Assembly: GCA_965222155.1 (NCBI GenBank)
Contig: CBDCTH010000001.1
Coordinates: forward strand, 1-64,000
Source of the DNA: Gammaproteobacteria bacterium
GTDB taxonomy: Bacteria; Pseudomonadota; Gammaproteobacteria; Eutrophobiales; Eutrophobiaceae
Reading direction: 5' to 3'
Length of the DNA: 64,000 nucleotides
Within the stretch, counting starts at the first letter, position 1. Each line of letters starts with the position of its first letter. The translations under genes and the position numbers were made by a program. The notes below the pieces were generated by a model. That model worked only from the letters and a program-made list of their open reading frames with translations. It ran no database searches and was not told the DNA's origin. This document shows, one piece after another, positions 29,831 to 42,114 of the stretch.

Positions 29831-30203
29831 ACGCACTGACGATCTCACGGTGATGCGGATGGTGACTCTGACCGTTCCGTTCTTTCTGGTGCAAGTTCCA
29901 GCCCGGCTACATCAATACAGCCTACGACTCACTGCATTCTGGGATTCCCGGGCCGACTCGGTACTCCTCGCACAGAGCTTCTCCAACCAAAAAGCTGTGG
30001 CATTTGACGATCTTGTGAGCGCGTTGGCACCCGATGCATACGACTTCAAGCCCCCACCCAAGCCAGGACAGGATGCCCTATTCAAGTGATTCCGGTAGCT
30101 TATCCAAACTGTCCGTGCGAGAGACATGCCCTATTCCAACAATCTGCTGCCAGACAGACTGTGACCTGCCCCGGATGTCACGTATAGCCGTATGATTGGT
30201 CAA

Positions 30204-30779
30204 TCAGTGGAACACCCGGGGCCGAAAGTCTGCCTGATTGATAATGCTGGCGCTGCTCCCGGTGGCTCGGATGACATACAAGCCCTGCCGCTCCGCATAC
30301 ACCTGCACAGAATGGTCCACCTTCAGGTACGCCACTGCACCCAGTATCTTCCGTCCTTTGAATCCTGACACCCAACCCGTGAATTTATCCAGCTTCTCCA
30401 GAAAATGCGTCACATCCCCGGCCCGTAACGTGGTCTTGACTTCCACGACGACCACTTCTTCTCCATTCGCTGCCAGAATGTCATACTCATAATGCTCGCC
30501 ATTACGCCGACCGCTCACCCGGGGATACGTGGTCTGCACTTCTATCCCGCGCGCCTGCAGCAGGGGAAGCAGGTCCCCTTCTACCAGACTCTCCACCAGC
30601 TTGCCCCACTGGCTGGTAAACAACTCATCCAGCTTCTTCAAGCGCCGGTCAGTTTCCTTCATCTGCCGGTCGGTGTCCTTCATCTGTTCACGGACCTCCT
30701 CAGACTGCTTGCCGACGGCTCGCAGAATATCCCAGATTTCTTCGGGGGTGGCGGGGTCTTGATGCAGTTCGTTTTCCAT
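30204..30779 (-). CDS. Coiled-coil + PD-(D/E)XK nuclease-like protein (DUF3782-like), copy 1, 2 heptads
   Basis: ATPEEIW, QMKETDR heptads, QWGKLVESLV, EYDILAANG...VVVVEVKTTL; AGGAG upstream. Confidence 0.75.
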   Translation of the reverse strand: MENELHQDPATPEEIWDILRAVGKQSEEVREQMKDTDRQMKETDRRLKKLDELFTSQWGKLVESLVEGDLLPLLQARGIEVQTTYPRVSGRRNGEHYEYDILAANGEEVVVVEVKTTLRAGDVTHFLEKLDKFTGWVSGFKGRKILGAVAYLKVDHSVQVYAERQGLYVIRATGSSASIINQADFRPRVFH

Positions 30780-30910
30780 GATGCCTTTCTCCTGTGCTGG
30801 TTTGACGTTACAGAGAATAATAGAAGCGCCGGGATATATCAAGTTCAATTTTCATGCTGTCACTCCAAAGTTGCAATGTCCTCTTTTAACCTGCCTGGGG
30901 AGCGATATTT

Positions 30911-31071
30911 GTAACTTCTCAATAACCCCGTGCCTATTCCCGGGAGCGAGGGCGTCCCGCCCTCGCTCCAGGATGAATGATAAATGGTATCGCCGTCACT
31001 TCTGAATAACCCGGTGCCTTCAACTCGCAGGGTGCGCAAGATGCCTTATGCATTAGGTTATTGAGAAGTTA
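30911..31071. repeat. Element with 17-bp terminal inverted repeats
   Basis: GTAACTTCTCAATAACC / GGTTATTGAGAAGTTAC; left arm repeated at 37456 and 39453. Confidence 0.6.
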
Positions 31072-32618: not shown

Positions 32619-32855
32619 ATACAAGGATAAACCATGACTCATTGCTATTGAGTAAGGCACTACAAACAGGCAGAATGTGCCTTGAATGCCCGTTTCAAAT
32701 CTCTAACGTGGGATTTGGGTGCGTATTTCACAGCAAAGCTGCCACCCATTACACGGCAAAGCTGCCACCCCCAAGGAGGTAGATAACCGGCGCGTTTGAC
32801 GTGGATAACCAAGGGTATCCTGTGTCCTTATTTCTACTGAAAGGAGGAGACACAG

Positions 32856-34397
32856 ATGCCTGCAAAGAGGTTGTCCATGAGAAAGATAAAAGACGTATTA
32901 CGCCTGTGCTGGAGCCAGGGCCTGAGCAAACGCCAGACAGCCAGGAGTTGTGGCATTTCCCGTCCGGCGGTGGATGAGTACCTGCGCCGGGCCGAGGCGG
33001 CCGGGCTGGGTTGGCCGCTGCCTGCGGCGCTGGATGACGGGGCGCTGGAGCGTCTGCTGTTTCCGCCCGCCCCAGCTGTACCCGCCGCGGCCCGCGGCGT
33101 GCCCGATTGGTCACACATTCATCGGGAGTTGAAACGCCCGGGCGTCACCTTGCAGTTGTTATGGCATGAGTATCGCCAGACTCACCCGCAAGGCTATCAG
33201 TACACCTGGTTCTGCCAGCATTATCGGACGTGGCGTGGCAAGCTGGATCTGGTCATGCGCCAGGAGCACCGGGCCGGTGAGAAGCTGTTCGTGGATTATG
33301 CCGGTATGCGTGCTCAGGTCATCAACCCGGCAACCGGGGAAGTCCGTGAGGCAGAGGTGTTTGTGGCAGCGCTGGGCGCGTCGAACTACACCTATGCCGA
33401 GGCCACCTGGAGCCAGGGCCTGGAAGATTGGATCGGCGCCCACGTGCGCTGTTTTACCTACCTGGGCGGTGTGCCTGAAGTGGTGGTGCCGGATAATTTA
33501 CGCGCCGGGGTGAGCCGTGCGCATCGCTATGAGCCGGACATCAACCCCACCTACCAGGACCTGGCCACCCATTACGGGGTCGCCATTGTCCCGGCACGGG
33601 TGCGTCGTCCCCGTGACAAAGCGAAAGCCGAGGTCGCGGTACAGGTGGTAGAGCGCTGGATCCTCGCCGCCCTGCGCCAGCGTCAGTGCTTCTCCCTGGC
33701 CGAGTTGAACCGCGCCATCCGGGCGTTGCTGGAGACGCTCAACAACCGGCCCTTCAAGAAACTGCCGGGCACCCGGCGCGCGCTGTTTGAGCAACTGGAT
33801 AAACCGGCCCTGCGCCCCCTGCCCGTCGAAGCGTACGAATACGCCGAGTGGAAGCAGGCGCGGGTCCATATCGACTATCACATCGAGGTCCATGGCCATT
33901 ACTACTCCGTGCCCCACGCGCTCATCAAAAAACAACTGGACGTGCGCATCACCGCCAACACCATTGAATGCTTTCATCGCGGCCAGCGCATCGCCAGCCA
34001 TCGACGCTCGTATCATAAGGCACGTCATACCACCGTCCCGGCCCACATGCCCGAGGCGCACCGCCAGGCCGGCGAGTGGTCCCCGCAACGCCTGGGCCGC
34101 TGGGCCGCGCAGGTCGGGCCGGCCACAGAAACCCTTATCCTCCGTGTCCTGTCTGCCCGCAAGCACCCCCAGCAGGCCTACCGCAGTTGCTTAGGGATCC
34201 TGCGCCTGGCTAAAACCTACGGCGACGACCGGCTGGAGGCCGCCTGCCAACGCGCCCTCACCCTGGGCAGCCACAGTTACAAAAGTATCGAATCCATCCT
34301 CCGCCACGGCCTGGACCGGCAACCCCTCGCCGAGCAGACCGAGGCGGCCTTACCTGATGACCACGACAATATCCGTGGCCCATCCTACTACCACTGA
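32856..34397 (+). CDS. istA: IS21 transposase
   Basis: GEKLFVDYAG, VPDNL, PRDKAKAE, YYSVP, HDNIRGPSYYH. Confidence 0.95.
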   Translation: MPAKRLSMRKIKDVLRLCWSQGLSKRQTARSCGISRPAVDEYLRRAEAAGLGWPLPAALDDGALERLLFPPAPAVPAAARGVPDWSHIHRELKRPGVTLQLLWHEYRQTHPQGYQYTWFCQHYRTWRGKLDLVMRQEHRAGEKLFVDYAGMRAQVINPATGEVREAEVFVAALGASNYTYAEATWSQGLEDWIGAHVRCFTYLGGVPEVVVPDNLRAGVSRAHRYEPDINPTYQDLATHYGVAIVPARVRRPRDKAKAEVAVQVVERWILAALRQRQCFSLAELNRAIRALLETLNNRPFKKLPGTRRALFEQLDKPALRPLPVEAYEYAEWKQARVHIDYHIEVHGHYYSVPHALIKKQLDVRITANTIECFHRGQRIASHRRSYHKARHTTVPAHMPEAHRQAGEWSPQRLGRWAAQVGPATETLILRVLSARKHPQQAYRSCLGILRLAKTYGDDRLEAACQRALTLGSHSYKSIESILRHGLDRQPLAEQTEAALPDDHDNIRGPSYYH

Positions 34398-34416
34398 CCC
34401 ACGACAGGAGACTGCT

Positions 34417-35175
34417 ATGTTGATACATCCCACCCTGGACAAACTCCAGACCTTGAAATGCACCGGTATGGCTGCCGCCCTCACCGAGCAGATGTCCGTG
34501 CCCGATATCGATACCCTCAGCTTCGAGGAACGCCTCGGCCTGCTCGTCGACCGGGAGATAACCGAACGGGACAACCGACGCCTGTCCAACCGGCTGCGAT
34601 GCGCCCGCCTCAAACACAATGCCACCCTGGAGGATATCGACTATCGCCCCCCGCGCGGACTGGATAAATCCCTGATGCAATCACTGGCCACCTGCCAGTG
34701 GGTCCGCGAACACCTCAATATCCTCATCACCGGCCCCACCGGCGTCGGCAAAACCTGGCTCGCCTGTGCCCTGGCACACAACGCCTGCCGGCACGGCTAC
34801 ACCGCCCTCTACCTGCGCCTGCCCAGACTCCTCCAGGACCTGTCCATCGCCAAGGGCGATGGACGCTATCCCAAGCTCCTCACCACCCTGGCAAAAACCC
34901 AGGCCCTCATCCTCGATGACTGGGGCCTGGTCAAATTGAACGCAGAGCAGCGCCGTGACCTGCTGGAAATCCTGGAAGACCGCCACGGCGCACGCTCCAC
35001 CCTCGCTACCAGTCAATTACCGGCCGAAAAATGGCATCACAGCATCGGCGACCCCACCCTCGCCGATGCCATCCTTGACCGCCTGGTGCACAATGCTTAC
35101 AAAATACAACTCAAGGGTGAATCCATGCGAAAACAGAAAAAAACATTGACGATGATGACCCCAACAGAGTCATAA
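34417..35175 (+). CDS. istB: IS21 helper ATPase
   Basis: GPTGVGKT, LILDDWG, ADAILDRLVH, LKGESMRK. Confidence 0.95.
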   Translation: MLIHPTLDKLQTLKCTGMAAALTEQMSVPDIDTLSFEERLGLLVDREITERDNRRLSNRLRCARLKHNATLEDIDYRPPRGLDKSLMQSLATCQWVREHLNILITGPTGVGKTWLACALAHNACRHGYTALYLRLPRLLQDLSIAKGDGRYPKLLTTLAKTQALILDDWGLVKLNAEQRRDLLEILEDRHGARSTLATSQLPAEKWHHSIGDPTLADAILDRLVHNAYKIQLKGESMRKQKKTLTMMTPTES

Positions 35176-35445
35176 TGACCAACACCCACGTCATCACGCG
35201 CCTGGGGGTGGCAGCTTTGCTGCGTTCCGGGTGGCAGCCTTCACGTGAAACGGGTGGCAGGATTCAGTGAAATACGCAATTTGGGCATTAATTTGGATTT
35301 GATATTGTTTTTTAGATGTCTCATACTCCTTATATTACAATTATTCTATATATATCAGTATTCTGATTTATGCAGAGATTAGGAAGAAGTTTTATACTCA
35401 AATCTGGAGTATACTCCTGAATAGAAATCAGTGGAGGAGATTGAC

Positions 35446-35680: not shown

Positions 35681-36358
35681 TTGACTCTTGGAGCGTTTCT
35701 TGTTCCCACTGTTGCGGGATATTGGTTTTTAACGCACCTGTATTCCACACGGTTTGGTGCCCTCCGTGATTCGGGTTACCATCTTTTCTTCAGAGCCGTC
35801 ATATGCGGTGCCATTTTAGCTTTTATCTCACACTCAATCATTTTTTCTATAGGCTCCTGTTTTCCCGAAATCAGCACGAAATGGGAGTCTTTTATGCCAA
35901 TTCCTTACTCTGGCACGGCTATCCTGACCGCTCTGCTAGGATTTGTGCTTCCGATTATTGGCAATCAGTTTTACGATAAAGAAAAAGCCGTCCGGCGAGC
36001 AGCAGCAGAGAGTGGGGACCTCATTGAACTGCTAATTGCAGAATCTATTGAACATCAACGACTGATTGAGCTCTCTTTAAAAAGCAGGAAATCATATATC
36101 GGTTTTGCTCTTAAGAGCGGAATAATAAGCCAAGGTGAGTCTGATATAGCACTTATCCCTATGGCTAGCGGCTACAGGAATAAAGATACTCAACAGTTAG
36201 AAATCACGACGAACTATGCTACCGTAGTCGAGAAATCTCTTGAAGAGTCTTCAGACTTGATCTATGAAGATTTTCGAATTGTAATACCTATGCTTGAAAT
36301 AGTGTCCGCACGTATATTCCATCCTCAGGCGTATGAAATTTTTCAGAAGGAAGGTTGA
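35681..36358 (+). CDS. Hypothetical membrane protein
   Basis: Three N-terminal TM segments and a soluble C-terminal domain (SLKSRKSYIG, P..SGYR); AT-rich. Confidence 0.6.
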   Translation: MTLGAFLVPTVAGYWFLTHLYSTRFGALRDSGYHLFFRAVICGAILAFISHSIIFSIGSCFPEISTKWESFMPIPYSGTAILTALLGFVLPIIGNQFYDKEKAVRRAAAESGDLIELLIAESIEHQRLIELSLKSRKSYIGFALKSGIISQGESDIALIPMASGYRNKDTQQLEITTNYATVVEKSLEESSDLIYEDFRIVIPMLEIVSARIFHPQAYEIFQKEG

Positions 36359-36400
36359 TCTTACCGAAAATCCGTCCAGAACTCTTTTACAGGTAGTTTA

Positions 36401-36685
36401 GTCGTCCCTGAATAACCCCAAAAGCTATTCTAACCTATTGATTATAGTTATGTAAGCTGCGTTTTTCCCTGGACTGATAGTGCAGGTTTTGGTATCATGG
36501 GGCTTCATTTTCTGGCAATATCGGAGATAAAAATGACCCCCGGACACGCTGACGCGCATCCTTCATCAGACCTGTTCAGCGAACAGTTGGATACTATGCT
36601 CAACCCACGGCATGACTTGTATCGATTAGCCGACCTGGTGGACGGGTCGGTGTTTGATAAGGCACTCGGTGCGCGGTACTGCCCG
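36401..36685 (+). mobile_element. IS5 left-end remnant
   Basis: Homologous to 16445-16736 (TIR plus the 5' part of the transposase). Confidence 0.8.
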
Positions 36686-36769
36686 TGCGAGAGACACGCC
36701 CTATTCCAACAATCTGCTGCCAGACTGTGACCTGCCCCGGATGTCACGTATAGCCGTATGATTGGTCAA

Positions 36770-37324
36770 TCAGTGGAACACCCGGGGCCGAAAGTCTGCC
36801 TGATTGATAATGCTGGCGCTGCTCCCGGTGGCTCGGATGACATACAAGCCCTGCCGCTCCGCATACACCTGCACAGAATGGTCCACCTTCAGGTACGCCA
36901 CTGCGCCCAGTATCTTCCGTCCTTTGAATCCCGACACCCAACCCGTGAATTTATCCAGCTTCTCCAGAAAATGCGTCACATCCCCGGCCCGTAACGTGGT
37001 CTTGACTTCCACGACCACCACTTCTTCTCCATTCGCTGCCAGAATGTCATACTCGTAATGCTCGCCATTACGCCGACCGCTCACTCGGGGATACGTCGTC
37101 TGCACTTCTATCCCGCGCGCCTGCAACAGGGGAAGCAGGTCCCCTTCTACCAGACTCTCCACCAGCTTGCCCCACTGACTGGTAAACAACTCATCCAGCT
37201 TCTTCAAGCGTTGGTCGGTGTCCTTCATCTGTTCACGGACCTCCTCAGACTGCTTGCCGACGGCTCGCAGGATATTCCAGATTTCTTCGGGGGTGGCGGG
37301 GTCTTGATGCAGTTCGTTTTCCAT
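36770..37324 (-). CDS. DUF3782-like PD-(D/E)XK protein, copy 2, 1 heptad
   Basis: Near-identical to copy 1; 184 aa. Confidence 0.75.
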   Translation of the reverse strand: MENELHQDPATPEEIWNILRAVGKQSEEVREQMKDTDQRLKKLDELFTSQWGKLVESLVEGDLLPLLQARGIEVQTTYPRVSGRRNGEHYEYDILAANGEEVVVVEVKTTLRAGDVTHFLEKLDKFTGWVSGFKGRKILGAVAYLKVDHSVQVYAERQGLYVIRATGSSASIINQADFRPRVFH

Positions 37325-37613
37325 GATGCCTTTCTCCTGTGCTGGTTTGACGTTACAGAGAATAATAGAAGCGCCGGGATATATCAAGTTCAATTTTCAT
37401 GCTGTCACTCCAAAGTTGCAATGTCCTCTTTTAACCTGCCTGGGGAGAGATATTTGTAACTTCTCAATAACCCCGTGCCTATTTCCGGGAGGGAGGGCGT
37501 CTCACCCTCCACGAGGGCAAGATGCCCTCGTTCAAACATTTGGGGTCAGAGTAAAAATACAGTCAGTTTGGCAAGTGGTAGTGGCTTATTGTTAAGTATT
37601 TTTACTCTGACCC

Positions 37614-38507
37614 CAAACTCTCATGAGCAGGTCTTTGCACACCCCGACGGCATGTAACTAAAACTCTGGAGATGCAGTGTTATCCACAGCCTCCTCAGAG
37701 TTGACTACTGTCCCGTCCTGGTGTAGTCTGCTTAGCACATCGTCCACGTTAGCGCGTAAGCCCAACCCGGCTACAGGCCCTATGGCGGGGTCGCCTGAAA
37801 GACCAGAATGGGTATCCCTGTAGCGTGTCCTTTCCAGTCGGTCAGACCTTGTTAAGACCGAATGTGTTCGTGCGGCCTGATGCTTAGAACGCCCAAAAAT
37901 AGTTACACAGCAAACTCTCATGAGCAGGTCTTTGCACACCCCGACGGCATGTAACTAAAACTCTGGAGATGCAGTGTTATCCACAGCCTCCTCAGAGTTG
38001 ACTACTGTCCCGTCCTGGTGTAGTCTGCTTAGCACATCGTCCACGTTAGCGCGTAAGCCCAACCCGGCTACAGGCCCTATGGCGGGGTCGCCTGAAAGAC
38101 CAGAATGGGTATCCCTGTAGCGTGTCCTTTCCAGTCGGTCAGACCTTGTTAAGACCGAATGTGTTCGTGCGGCCTGATGCTTAGAACGCCCAAAAATAGT
38201 TACACAGCAAACTCTCATGAGCAGGTCTTTGCACACCCCGACGGCATGTAACTAAAACTCTGGAGATGCAGTGTTATCCACAGCCTCCTCAGAGTTGACT
38301 ACTGTCCCGTCCTGGTGTAGTCTGCTTAGCACATCGTCCACGTTAGCGCGTAAGCCCAACCCGGCTACAGGCCCTATGGCGGGGTCGCCTGAAAGACCAG
38401 AATGGGTATCCCTGTAGCGTGTCCTTTCCAGTCGGTCAGACCTTGTTAAGACCGAATGTGTTCGTGCGGCCTGATGCTTAGAACGCCCAAAAATAGTTAC
38501 ACAGCAA
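37614..38507. repeat. Three identical head-to-tail 297-bp units
   Basis: Units begin CAAACTCTCATGAG at 37614, 37911 and 38208; terminal CAA at 38505-38507. Confidence 0.97.
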
Positions 38508-38703
38508 TATCCGTGCTTTCGGTCGCAGGCACCCATTGGCGGACATACGAAGCCGTATAGAGAGGGACAAGTTGCTGAGTAATAGCGCGATTGGACGGAG
38601 TATCACCGAGTTTTTGAGGAATGTCGCTGCCCCCGGTAGCCATGGGAACGCTGCCAGACTGTGACCTGCCCCGGATGTCACGTATAGCCGTATGATTGGT
38701 CAA

Positions 38704-39321
38704 TCAGTGGAACACCCGGGGCCGAAAGTCTGCCTGATTGATAATGCTGGCGCTGCTCCCGGTGGCTCGGATGACATACAAGCCCTGCCGCTCCGCATAC
38801 ACCTCCACAGAATGGTCCACCTTCAGGTACGCCACTGCGCCCAGTATCTTCCGTCCTTTGAATCCCGACACCCAACCCGTGAATTTATCCAGCTTCTCCA
38901 GAAAATGCGTCACATCCCCGGCCCGTAACGTGGTCTTGACTTCCACGACGACCACTTCTTCTCCATTCGCTGCCAGAATGTCATACTCATAATGCTCGCC
39001 ATTACGCCGACCGCTCACCCGGGGATACGTGGTCTGCACTTCTATCCCACGCGCCTGCAACAGGGGAATCAGGTCCCCTTCTACCAGACTCTCCACCAGC
39101 TTGCCCCACTGACTGGTAAACAACTCATCCAGTTTCTTCAAGCGCCGGTCGGTTTCCTTCATCTGCAGGCCGGTCTCCTTCATCTGCCGGTCGGTTTCCT
39201 TCATCTGCCGGTCGGTGTCCTTCATCTGTTCACGGACCTCCTCAGACTGCTTGCCGACGGCTCGTAGAATATTCCAGATTTCTTCGGGGGTGGCGGGGTC
39301 TTGATGCAGTTCGTTTTCCAT
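38704..39321 (-). CDS. DUF3782-like PD-(D/E)XK protein, copy 3, 4 heptads
   Basis: Near-identical to copy 1; 205 aa. Confidence 0.75.
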   Translation of the reverse strand: MENELHQDPATPEEIWNILRAVGKQSEEVREQMKDTDRQMKETDRQMKETGLQMKETDRRLKKLDELFTSQWGKLVESLVEGDLIPLLQARGIEVQTTYPRVSGRRNGEHYEYDILAANGEEVVVVEVKTTLRAGDVTHFLEKLDKFTGWVSGFKGRKILGAVAYLKVDHSVEVYAERQGLYVIRATGSSASIINQADFRPRVFH

Positions 39322-39880
39322 GATGCCTTTCTCCTGTGCTGGTTTGACGTTACAGAGAATAATACAAGCGCCGGAATATATCAAGTTCAATTTTCATGCT
39401 GTCACTCCAAAGTTGCAATGTCCTCTTTTAACCTGCGTGGGGAGAGATATTTGTAACTTCTCAATAACCCCGTGCCTATTTCCGGGAGGGAGGGCGTCTC
39501 ACCCTCGTTCCAGGATGAATGATAAATGGTATCACCGTCACTTCTGACTAACCCGGTGCCTTCAACTCGCAGGGTGCGCAAGATGCCGGAAGACTTTCTC
39601 TGGTGGGGCGGTCATTATAACTGGCTGATAAAGTTAGCGGGAACGGCTGACACCTCAAAGTATCACTTGACAATGAAGGCGGTATCCATATAAGAGGTTC
39701 CTTAAATTCAGGAAGGGCCTGTCTTGGGATGTTGTCATCCATAGCCAAAATCCAGTGGAACAACGGACTTGGTTTACCTGAATGCCTATCCTGGAGATGT
39801 TGCTAATCCGGGGCAGCCATCCGGTTGAAACCAGGTAAATTCCATAAAAGCGGGCAGCCGCTCTGCTATAATAGTTGGGT

Positions 39881-41020
39881 ATGGCCATCACAGCCAAACA
39901 TAATCCCTACACCCCTGGCATAGGAATCGAGCCGGTTTGCCTGGCTGGACGGCAAGAAGAGCAACGTGTTTTGGCAGAAGCGATGGCGCGAATTCAGGAC
40001 AAATTGCCAGGTAACGATCATATCCTGATCGGCCCCAGGGGTAACGGCAAGACGACTTTGCTGCGCTGGTTCGATAGTCATTGCAAGGGACAGGCCAACG
40101 CAGTGGATGTAGTCTGGTTGACTCCGGCGGAGATCCAGGATATCGCTACACTGACCAGACTGTTGACTCCACGGCCGAAGCTCAAGCTGCCGCTGCTGGA
40201 CAGCCTTTCCGTGTCGATAATCGGGAGTCGCTTGATCTGGGGCAAGCCCGCGGCACACACGCTGACCAGGCTACTGACCGCGCGCTGCCGAACCACCCCC
40301 CTGGTACTGTTGCTGGACGAAGCCCACACGCTGCACTCTCAGGTGGGCCAGGTACTGCTGAACGTCAGCCAGGAAGTGCGTGCCGCAGCGCCCTTCCTGT
40401 TGGTCCTGGCCGGTACCCCTGGGCTGCAATCCACCTTGGCCAACATGCAGGCAAGTTTTTGGGACCGGGCAGAGCAATTGTTTATCGGCTTGCTGCCTGA
40501 CGGAGCCAGTGAGGAAATACTGGTTAAAACGGGTGCAGTCAGCGGCCTCCAGTACGAACCTGATGCCCTTGACCAGTTGGTCATCGCTGGGGACCGCTAC
40601 CCGTATTTTGTGCAATTGCTGGGCCGGGCTGCCTGGAAACAGGCCCGGCAGACGCAACGTGCTACAGTTGATCGGCAAGCCGCCGAAACGGCGATAGCAG
40701 AGGTTAAACCTTTACGGTATGAGTATTATCGAAATCGCCTGGCTGAACTGGAACATACTGAGAATGCGGCACCAGCCTATGCAGTAGCCAAACTATTGGA
40801 CGAAAAACAAAGTGTGTCTGACTGGGAATTAAACACCATCCTGCAACAGGTATCAGCCGACCACGGGGATAATGCCCCTGCAATTATAAAACGAAATAAA
40901 GACACCTTGTATGGCTTAGGTCTGATTTGGCGAGATCCGGGAGCAGACGAGTGGACTTGCGGCATCCCCAGCCTGGCTGGATACGTAGCCGACAGACTAC
41001 GGCCTGGGTTGGAAATCTGA
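39881..41020 (+). CDS. P-loop AAA-type ATPase
   Basis: NPYTPG.G..P..LAGR, GPRGNGKTT, LLLDEAH, LVLAGTP, YPYFVQLLG. Confidence 0.85.
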   Translation: MAITAKHNPYTPGIGIEPVCLAGRQEEQRVLAEAMARIQDKLPGNDHILIGPRGNGKTTLLRWFDSHCKGQANAVDVVWLTPAEIQDIATLTRLLTPRPKLKLPLLDSLSVSIIGSRLIWGKPAAHTLTRLLTARCRTTPLVLLLDEAHTLHSQVGQVLLNVSQEVRAAAPFLLVLAGTPGLQSTLANMQASFWDRAEQLFIGLLPDGASEEILVKTGAVSGLQYEPDALDQLVIAGDRYPYFVQLLGRAAWKQARQTQRATVDRQAAETAIAEVKPLRYEYYRNRLAELEHTENAAPAYAVAKLLDEKQSVSDWELNTILQQVSADHGDNAPAIIKRNKDTLYGLGLIWRDPGADEWTCGIPSLAGYVADRLRPGLEI

Positions 41021-41348
41021 GAGGCATTATGGTGTATTTTGCCTGTTTGTAGTACCTTGCTCAGCAGCCTTGGACCAGGGTTTGCCATTGAACAGGGTGG
41101 GCTGCCGCTCGCTCACGCCGTATTGGGGCAGTGCAAGCTGAAAGGCATATCCCAATATGGCGCAGAGGGATGGCTGGTCGCTGGCGGACATACGAAGCCG
41201 TATAGAGAGGGATAAGTTGCTGAGTAATAGCGCGATTGGGCGGAGTATCACCGAGTTTTTGAGGAATGTCGCTGCCCCCGGTAGCGATGGGGACGCTGCC
41301 AGACTGTGACCCGCCCCAGATTTCACGTATAGCCGTATGATTGGTCAA

Positions 41349-41945
41349 TCAGCAGAACACCCGGGGCCGAAAGTCTGCCTGATTGATAATGCTGGCGCTG
41401 CTCCCGGTGGCTCGGATGACATACAAGCCCTGCCGCTCCGCATACACCTGCACAGAATGATCCACCTTCAGGTACGCCACTGCGCCCAGTATCTTCCGTC
41501 CTTTGAATCCCGACACCCAACCCGTGAATTTATCCAGCTTCTCCAGAAAATGCGTCACATCCCCGGCCCGTAACGTGGTCTTGACTTCCACGACGACCAC
41601 TTCTTCTCCATTCGCTGCCAGAATGTCATACTCGTAATGCTCGCCATTACGCCGACCGCTCACTCGGGGATACGTCGTCTGCACTTCTATCCCGCGCGCC
41701 TGCAACAGGGGAATCAGGTCCCCTTCTACCAGACTCTCCACCAGCTTGCCCCACTGGCTGGTAAACAACTCATCCAGTTTCTTCAAGCGCCGGTCGGTTT
41801 CCTTCATCTGCCGGTCGGTTTCCTTCATCCGCCGGTCGGTGTCCTTCATCTGTTCACGGACCTCCTCAGACTGCTTGCCGACGGCTCGCAGAATATTCCA
41901 GATTTCTTCGGGGGTGGCGGGGTCTTGATGCAGTTCGTTTTCCAT
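41349..41945 (-). CDS. DUF3782-like PD-(D/E)XK protein, copy 4, 3 heptads
   Basis: Near-identical to copy 1; 198 aa. Confidence 0.75.
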   Translation of the reverse strand: MENELHQDPATPEEIWNILRAVGKQSEEVREQMKDTDRRMKETDRQMKETDRRLKKLDELFTSQWGKLVESLVEGDLIPLLQARGIEVQTTYPRVSGRRNGEHYEYDILAANGEEVVVVEVKTTLRAGDVTHFLEKLDKFTGWVSGFKGRKILGAVAYLKVDHSVQVYAERQGLYVIRATGSSASIINQADFRPRVFC

Positions 41946-42114
41946 GATGCCTTTCTCCTGTGCTGGTTTGACGTTACAGAGAATAATACAAGCGCCGGAA
42001 TATATCAAGTTCAATTTTCATGCTGTATTTCAAACTGAGACACTATCAGTTTCTCCATAATAAGGAATAGCATCCTAATCTCTGTCGATATATATTCTAA
42101 TCTTGAGACAAGCA

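Follow-up and report, generated by a model that had tools for sequence, protein, structure and literature searches.

The tandem array at positions 37614-38507 of the window (the whole 64,000-nt stretch of DNA analyzed here) very probably consists of three head-to-tail copies of a 297-bp, non-autonomous miniature derivative of an IS110-family insertion sequence (IS), as judged by sequence comparison. The repeats are hitch-hiking selfish DNA of an already described kind, as opposed to a novel RNA gene. Both miniature derivatives and tandem modules of IS110 elements have precedents in the literature (MITEPpu9 and two preprints). Tandem Repeats Finder reported the array as 3.0 copies of period 297 with 100% matches, 0 indels and a score of 1788, and a script comparison found units 1, 2 and 3 to be letter-identical, which bears out the perfect 3x297-bp concatemer of the first-pass annotation. 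In the preferred phase of the array, with AA as the shared core, the units occupy the positions given in Table 1. At both internal junctions (37913/37914 and 38210/38211) the sequence is ...GTTACACAGCAA/ACTCTCATGA..., a right end joined through AA to a left end, as predicted for the circle (donor) junction of right end-core-left end; the CAA microhomology noticed earlier corresponds to the C-AA found at each junction. The suggestion in the same annotation of a non-autonomous IS110-type element amplified head-to-tail thus finds support in end homology, a common target and a circle-like junction.

Table 1. Features of the array and its surroundings, in coordinates of the 64,000-nt window.
Feature	Position	Strand	Remarks
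IS21-type pair	32856-35175		513-aa IstA-like protein (rve, Mu-transpos_C_2) and 272-aa IstB
Paralogous ORFs	36770-37393, 38704-39390, 41349-42014		207, 228 and 221 aa; coiled-coil and Hjc/PD-(D/E)XK-like
REP-like palindrome	37540..37616	+	Insertion target; arms TTGGGGTCAGAGTAAAAATAC / GTATTTTTACTCTGACCCCAA
Probable mini-IS110 unit 1	37617..37913	+	297 bp; blastn to IS ends, MAFFT with 10 family members
Unit 1, left-end-derived part	~37617-37726	+	blastn and MAFFT
Left subterminal inverted repeat TGTAACTA	37653..37660	+	Unit positions 37-44; recurs at +297 and +594
Hairpin 1 of left end (AACTCTG...CAGAGTT)	37662..37702	+	Structurally conserved in family
Unit 1, right-end-derived part	~37754-37913	+	blastn and MAFFT; ~27 nt between the two parts
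Probable mini-IS110 unit 2	37914..38210	+	Same letters as unit 1
Probable mini-IS110 unit 3	38211..38507	+	Same letters as units 1 and 2; ends ...GTTACACAGCAA (left donor and core)
Right target flank TATCCG	38508..38513	+	3' of array end at 38507

A full-length IS110-family relative is present in the same genome (4.55 Mb in 12 contigs, one of 3.5 Mb) as a single copy, located on another contig than the array at C12:447543-449344. This element of 1,802 bp consists of a left end of 331 nt, a gene at 447874-449142 and a right end of 202 nt. Its ORF specifies a protein of 422 aa with the domains PF01548 (DEDD_Tnp_IS110, E 5e-17) and PF02371 (Transposase_20, E 7e-20), and is related to the solved IS621 (E 9e-10) and ISCro4 (E 1.8e-10) transposases. 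The genome-wide BLAST search of the unit that had been proposed as a check returned homology to the ends of this element, beside the 422-aa transposase gene, and two further copies of the unit. By sensitive blastn, unit positions 1-110 match the IS left end (C12:447540-447647, 77%) and positions 141-235 match the IS right end (C12:449193-449287, 80%), and a blastn match of positions 138-297 to C12:449193-449344 (72%) continues through the right end to the unit tip, so that each unit terminus has its homologue in the corresponding end of an IS110-family element. Identity to the full-length IS is highest at the extremities, with 93% over the first 43 nt, 94% over the last 16 nt and the first 10 nt shared. 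Outside the tips identity is 72-80%, and the G+C content of the unit (53.2%; genome, 52.9%) differs from that of the full-length IS (66.6%), which means that the unit was not derived from this resident copy. Aligned by MAFFT, the unit keeps to the family as far as about column 130, is gapped across the entire guide region and rejoins the family in the right end; ~110 nt of left end and ~160 nt of right end are retained, with ~1.5 kb removed. A global pairwise alignment of the unit and the full IS gave scattered small matches and was not used to place the deletion breakpoints.

The array lies directly 3' of a palindrome, as the first-pass annotation had observed, and the last bases of this palindrome, CTGACCCCAA (37607-37616), constitute the left target and the AA core (37615-37616). 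The full-length IS is inserted at this point too (...CTCTGACCCCAA/ACTCTCATGA), likewise with an AA core, and is flanked on the left by ...TTTTTACTCTGACCCCAA/ACTCTCATGA and on the right by ...GTTACACAGCAA/ATATCCG. The overall arrangement ...GACCCCAA/ACTCTC ... CAGCAA/(A)TATCC is common to the array, the full-length IS and a dispersed copy of the unit at C12:1193165. Insertion is site-specific at a short core, without terminal inverted repeats or a longer target duplication, and AA stands 5' of the left end at 16 of 16 family insertion sites examined. The palindrome end motif TACTCTGACCC[CT]AA occurs 100 times in the genome, and after CCCCAA most other palindrome copies run on as ATATC...; this GGGTCAG palindrome is a REP-like repeat offering many potential insertion targets.

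The left end of the unit holds the right donor ACTCTCATGA, a conserved GCACACCCCG...CATGTAACT box, which is found family-wide and lies within the first 43 nt of the unit, and hairpin 1. The right end contains a box, ACAGGCC...CGCGGGGC.GCC, that is kept even in distant relatives, and closes with the subterminal repeat followed by the left donor GTTACACAGCAA. The subterminal repeat TGTAACTA pairs with TAGTTACA at 37900-37907 (unit positions 284-291), and these are the two strands of the closing helix that had earlier been drawn for each unit; ATGTAAC and GTTACA[CT]AGCAA are conserved across the IS family. In hairpin 1, each of the 17 predicted pairs can form in 6-9 of the 9 sequences, and some pairs show changes on both sides, while the apex in the unit differs from that of the family and contains a TTATCCACA box (37680-37688). 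Neither a DEDD (PF01548) and Transposase_20 (PF02371) gene nor the target- and donor-binding guides of a bridge RNA are present in the unit, and it must therefore be moved in trans. No IS110 transposase was found within the 64-kb window.

Bridge-RNA guides of the parent family were sought by applying IS621 geometry to the left ends of the family relatives; in IS621, both the left target guide and the left donor guide have the sequence of the top strand, including the core (PMC11208160). The transposase relatives comprise 46 loci with up to 77% identity, with left ends that begin AC..[CT]CATG, right ends that finish GTTACA[CT]AGCAA, and AA preceding all of them. A variable heptamer before a conserved ACTGT (left-end positions ~165-174) tracks the left flank and is the putative left target guide, and an octamer at left-end positions ~228-242 tracks the right tip and is the putative left donor guide. 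In the full-length IS these guides are GACCCCAA (left-end 165-172), an exact match to the array flank, and CACAGCAA (left-end ~229-236), an exact match to the last 8 nt of the unit; both sequences are absent inside the unit except at its own right tip. The relationship between guide and flank was assessed at 16 insertion sites of 10 distinct elements, on the basis of the 5 guide-column nucleotides that precede the core. Cognate pairs (16 sites) showed a mean of 3.25 of 5 matches and a contiguous run from the core of 2.94, and non-cognate pairs (226) a mean of 1.88 of 5 matches and a run of 0.71; the observed total was reached in 1 of 5000 permutations of guides among elements. At 13 of 16 sites, the left donor guide tracks the C/T difference seen in the right end, the exceptions being L009, L010 and L036, and in two of these (L009 and L036, i.e., 2 of 10 family members) a C in the donor guide faces a T in the right end. 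A candidate right target guide at left-end positions ~138-148 is short (4-8 nt) and A/T-rich, and neither reverse-complement k-mers nor inspection of the donor loop on its 3' side revealed a right donor guide; for these reasons the model of the parental bridge RNA is incomplete. The TATCCG at left-end positions 270-275 was rejected as a right target guide, since this segment is conserved in relatives that have other targets.

The two further copies of the unit in this genome are a complete one at C12:1193165-1193460, with 9 differences from the array unit, and a 5'-truncated one at C12:511913-512180, with 5 differences, and both have a 1-nt deletion at unit position 85. The amplification is recent, given that the three array copies do not differ from one another whereas the dispersed ones show 5 and 9 differences. 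Among 40 other genomes searched there was no full-length unit, and 13 of the 40 match only unit positions 1 to ~56 or 4-107, these being left ends of related elements. The comparison therefore offers no sign that this mini element has passed from one genome to another. From the matching ends and guides, the single full-length copy at C12:447543-449344 would supply the recombinase and bridge RNA in trans, and we infer that the trimer was formed by recombinase-mediated reactions. One candidate route is the insertion of excised circles beside a resident copy at a hybrid or donor junction ("half-match" or donor-donor recombination), and another is an exchange of the excision type between sister chromosomes; after a first duplication, ordinary homologous exchange could have added the third copy.

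The principal alternative is that the miniature element was amplified by host processes, i.e., replication slippage or unequal homologous exchange, and not by an IS110 recombinase. The identity of the three copies would fit such a process, and perfect repeats of 297 bp, once duplicated, are suited to RecA-type unequal exchange. The first duplication, however, would have to join right end-AA-left end exactly, and the only sequence shared there is C-AA. The same exact junction also recurs in a relative: in genome G041, three 100% identical, full-length copies of 1,802 bp stand in a perfect head-to-tail array (G041:C1:189024-194428, the L011/L012 record), with junctions as in the window array and with two solo IS copies elsewhere in that genome. 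Recombinase-dependent tandem repeats have, moreover, been reported experimentally in a preprint (10.1101/2025.10.25.684509). Host amplification is unlikely on this evidence, and formation of the trimer by the recombinase is favored by the presence of the same architecture in relatives together with the published tandem IS110 products. Adjacent ends also occur elsewhere in the family: in L029 a mini element of ~110 bp abuts the left end of a full-length IS, and in L037 a second, diverged left end begins immediately after a right end. A pattern count over 46 loci found 35 left-end starts, 4 of them after a right-end tip; since one of the G041 junctions is counted in two overlapping loci, this corresponds to three distinct right-left junctions in two genomes.

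Perfect repeats can be miscounted, and the copy number might be an artefact of assembly, with a true locus of one or two units. This is very improbable, as the array measures only 891 bp and has unique sequence on either side, the genome is assembled in 12 contigs of which one reaches 3.5 Mb, and the analogous 5.4-kb array of G041 sits within a single 4.35-Mb record titled 'chromosome: 1'. A search of the same assembly for another allele of the array locus, or for the site without the array, found none. Part of the stretch is contained in 8 rows of public sequencing runs, none of those listed being recorded as RNA; the four runs compared with it consist of short assembled contigs, and no listed piece covers the whole stretch. 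In run X2, a contig joins 37615 to 38506 with 21 letters on the shorter side, and may stem from another copy of the palindrome.

The first-pass annotation had also considered the unit to be a large structured RNA, and in that case amplification would serve to raise the dose of a non-coding RNA gene. Several hairpins can indeed be drawn as it described, hairpin 1 is structurally conserved in the family, and the right-end box is conserved in sequence across distant relatives. The whole-unit fold is, however, no more stable than that of shuffled sequences (z = -0.45 for the plus strand and -0.59 for the minus strand), and the Infernal/Rfam check that had been recommended was carried out with Rfam 15 and returned no match within the unit at E <= 1; the searched region 36000-40000 gave two sub-threshold chance matches, both outside the unit. 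With neither a covariance-model match nor a significant fold, the unit does not resemble a known structured RNA family. The long helix GCTACAGG/CCTGTAGC drawn earlier is not preserved in relatives, no sigma-70-like promoter was found in the array where 0.6 were expected, and the guide region of the parent is missing from the unit. The parts that are conserved are accounted for as mobile-element ends, and an RNA gene is very improbable. Nothing points to the template-jumping reverse transcriptase that had been raised as a route of amplification, and the reverse-transcriptase and IS200/IS605-type readings were dropped after the IS110 homology emerged. A repeated protein of 93-99 aa on the minus strand, suggested by a frame with one stop per 297 nt (the resulting 93-aa ORFs are the sole ORFs of >= 50 aa in the unit), can practically be dismissed, for it matches no Pfam family and is frameshifted in the copies at C12:1193165 and C12:511913 by the 1-nt deletion at unit position 85, in agreement with the earlier remark that such a frame can arise by chance.

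The DnaA box TTATCCACA that had been pointed out at 37680 is present there and again at 37977 and 38274, and nowhere else in the genome do three perfect TTATCCACA boxes fall within 1 kb. Genome-wide, there are 45 such boxes and 34.7 expected under uniform composition, and the dispersed unit copies do not differ from the array unit at the box positions. The triplet of boxes is probably a by-product of unit amplification.

Other remnants of IS110-type elements were encountered in this genome. A further mini-IS110 family, ~285 bp long and with an interior unlike that of the 297-bp unit, is represented at C12:2638430-2638714 (minus strand), C12:707951.. and C12:511696..; one copy is complete and lies 3' of ...CTGACCCCAA, and two copies are 5'-truncated. 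At C12:511696-512180, a member of this family is fused head-to-head with the 5'-truncated copy of the 297-bp unit, near a left-end ATGTAACT box. Solo fragments of the IS family were seen as a left end of 51 nt after ...AGCCCCCAA (C12:69430-69479) and as a right end (C12:186281-186358). Among the relatives, four loci (L009, L036, L019 and L029) have an extended -10-like TGGTATAAT in the last 15-24 nt before the right-end tip, which reads outward across that tip and could act as a promoter for the left end of a circle or of the following tandem copy; this element is absent from the 297-bp unit.

The neighborhood of the array is itself repetitive. A segment of ~0.9 kb occurs as four paralogous copies that are 95-99% identical (30037-30964, 36603-37509, 38537-39506 and 41182-42098), and the array lies between two of them; 38537 is also where the dispersed repeat family D3 begins, 3' of the array. 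Sequence similarity among the three paralogous gene copies of the window ends before the palindrome, and a 21-bp (7-aa) repeat is present in varying number in their Hjc/PD-(D/E)XK-like ORFs. The IS21-type pair is flanked by inverted repeats at 32726-32773 and 35203-35250.

There is a small chance that, through its internal donor junctions, the array is active in the chromosome as a donor, a decoy or a site of rearrangement. If so, the array could, with the recombinase and bridge RNA of the resident element present, release 297-bp circles repeatedly while the locus is retained, could take up further circles, could titrate the recombinase-RNA complex as a decoy, or could recombine with any of the ~100 palindrome targets to produce large inversions or deletions. 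For the annotation of this genome, the analysis removes a candidate "new structured RNA" and puts a well-supported assignment in its place. It indicates that an IS110-type element can apparently persist and multiply without its recombinase and guide RNA when ~110 and 160 nt of its ends are kept, and that one IS clade makes identical three-copy head-to-tail arrays of both full-length and miniature forms. For bridge-recombinase engineering, such arrays represent natural chromosomal donor sites, and are a reminder that insertion beside resident copies, through half-match or donor-donor events, occurs in nature.

Among described systems, the parent element resembles IS621, as presented in PMC11208160, in its related DEDD/Transposase_20 recombinase, its dinucleotide core, its REP-like target and its long left end with putative left target and left donor guides. 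It differs in having AA as its core where IS621 has CT, in a subterminal inverted repeat of 8 bp where 2-3 bp are given for the IS110 group, and in a putative right target guide located 5' of the left target guide; the unit, unlike IS621-type elements, is without both recombinase and guides. Tandem arrays are to be expected from several published observations. Head-to-tail arrays have been cataloged both for complete IS110 modules (n=437) and for transposase-adjacent non-coding units (n=468) (10.64898/2026.08.14.744561); as described there, the non-coding arrays adjoin a transposase gene, whereas the window array has no IS110 transposase in 64 kb. An excision assay of CazIS110-1 yielded tandem cargo repeats in 3 of 96 colonies (10.1101/2025.10.25.684509), and IS621 is described as recombining at half-matching sites (10.64898/2026.08.31.748434). 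The closest described analogue of the unit is MITEPpu9, the ssr9 module of ISPpu9 in Pseudomonas putida KT2440, which occurs solo, beside the IS and, in some strains, in tandem, and which forms its own minicircles once transposase is supplied (PMC12288879). MITEPpu9 and the unit are both short, lack a transposase, have ends like those of an IS110-family IS, and are inserted in REP-type palindromes at a shared dinucleotide. MITEPpu9 carries the sRNA gene ssr9 and uses the dinucleotide AG (PMC12288879), whereas the unit has no detectable RNA gene and uses AA; the unit also belongs to a different IS clade, and is found as a free trimer away from the full-length IS.
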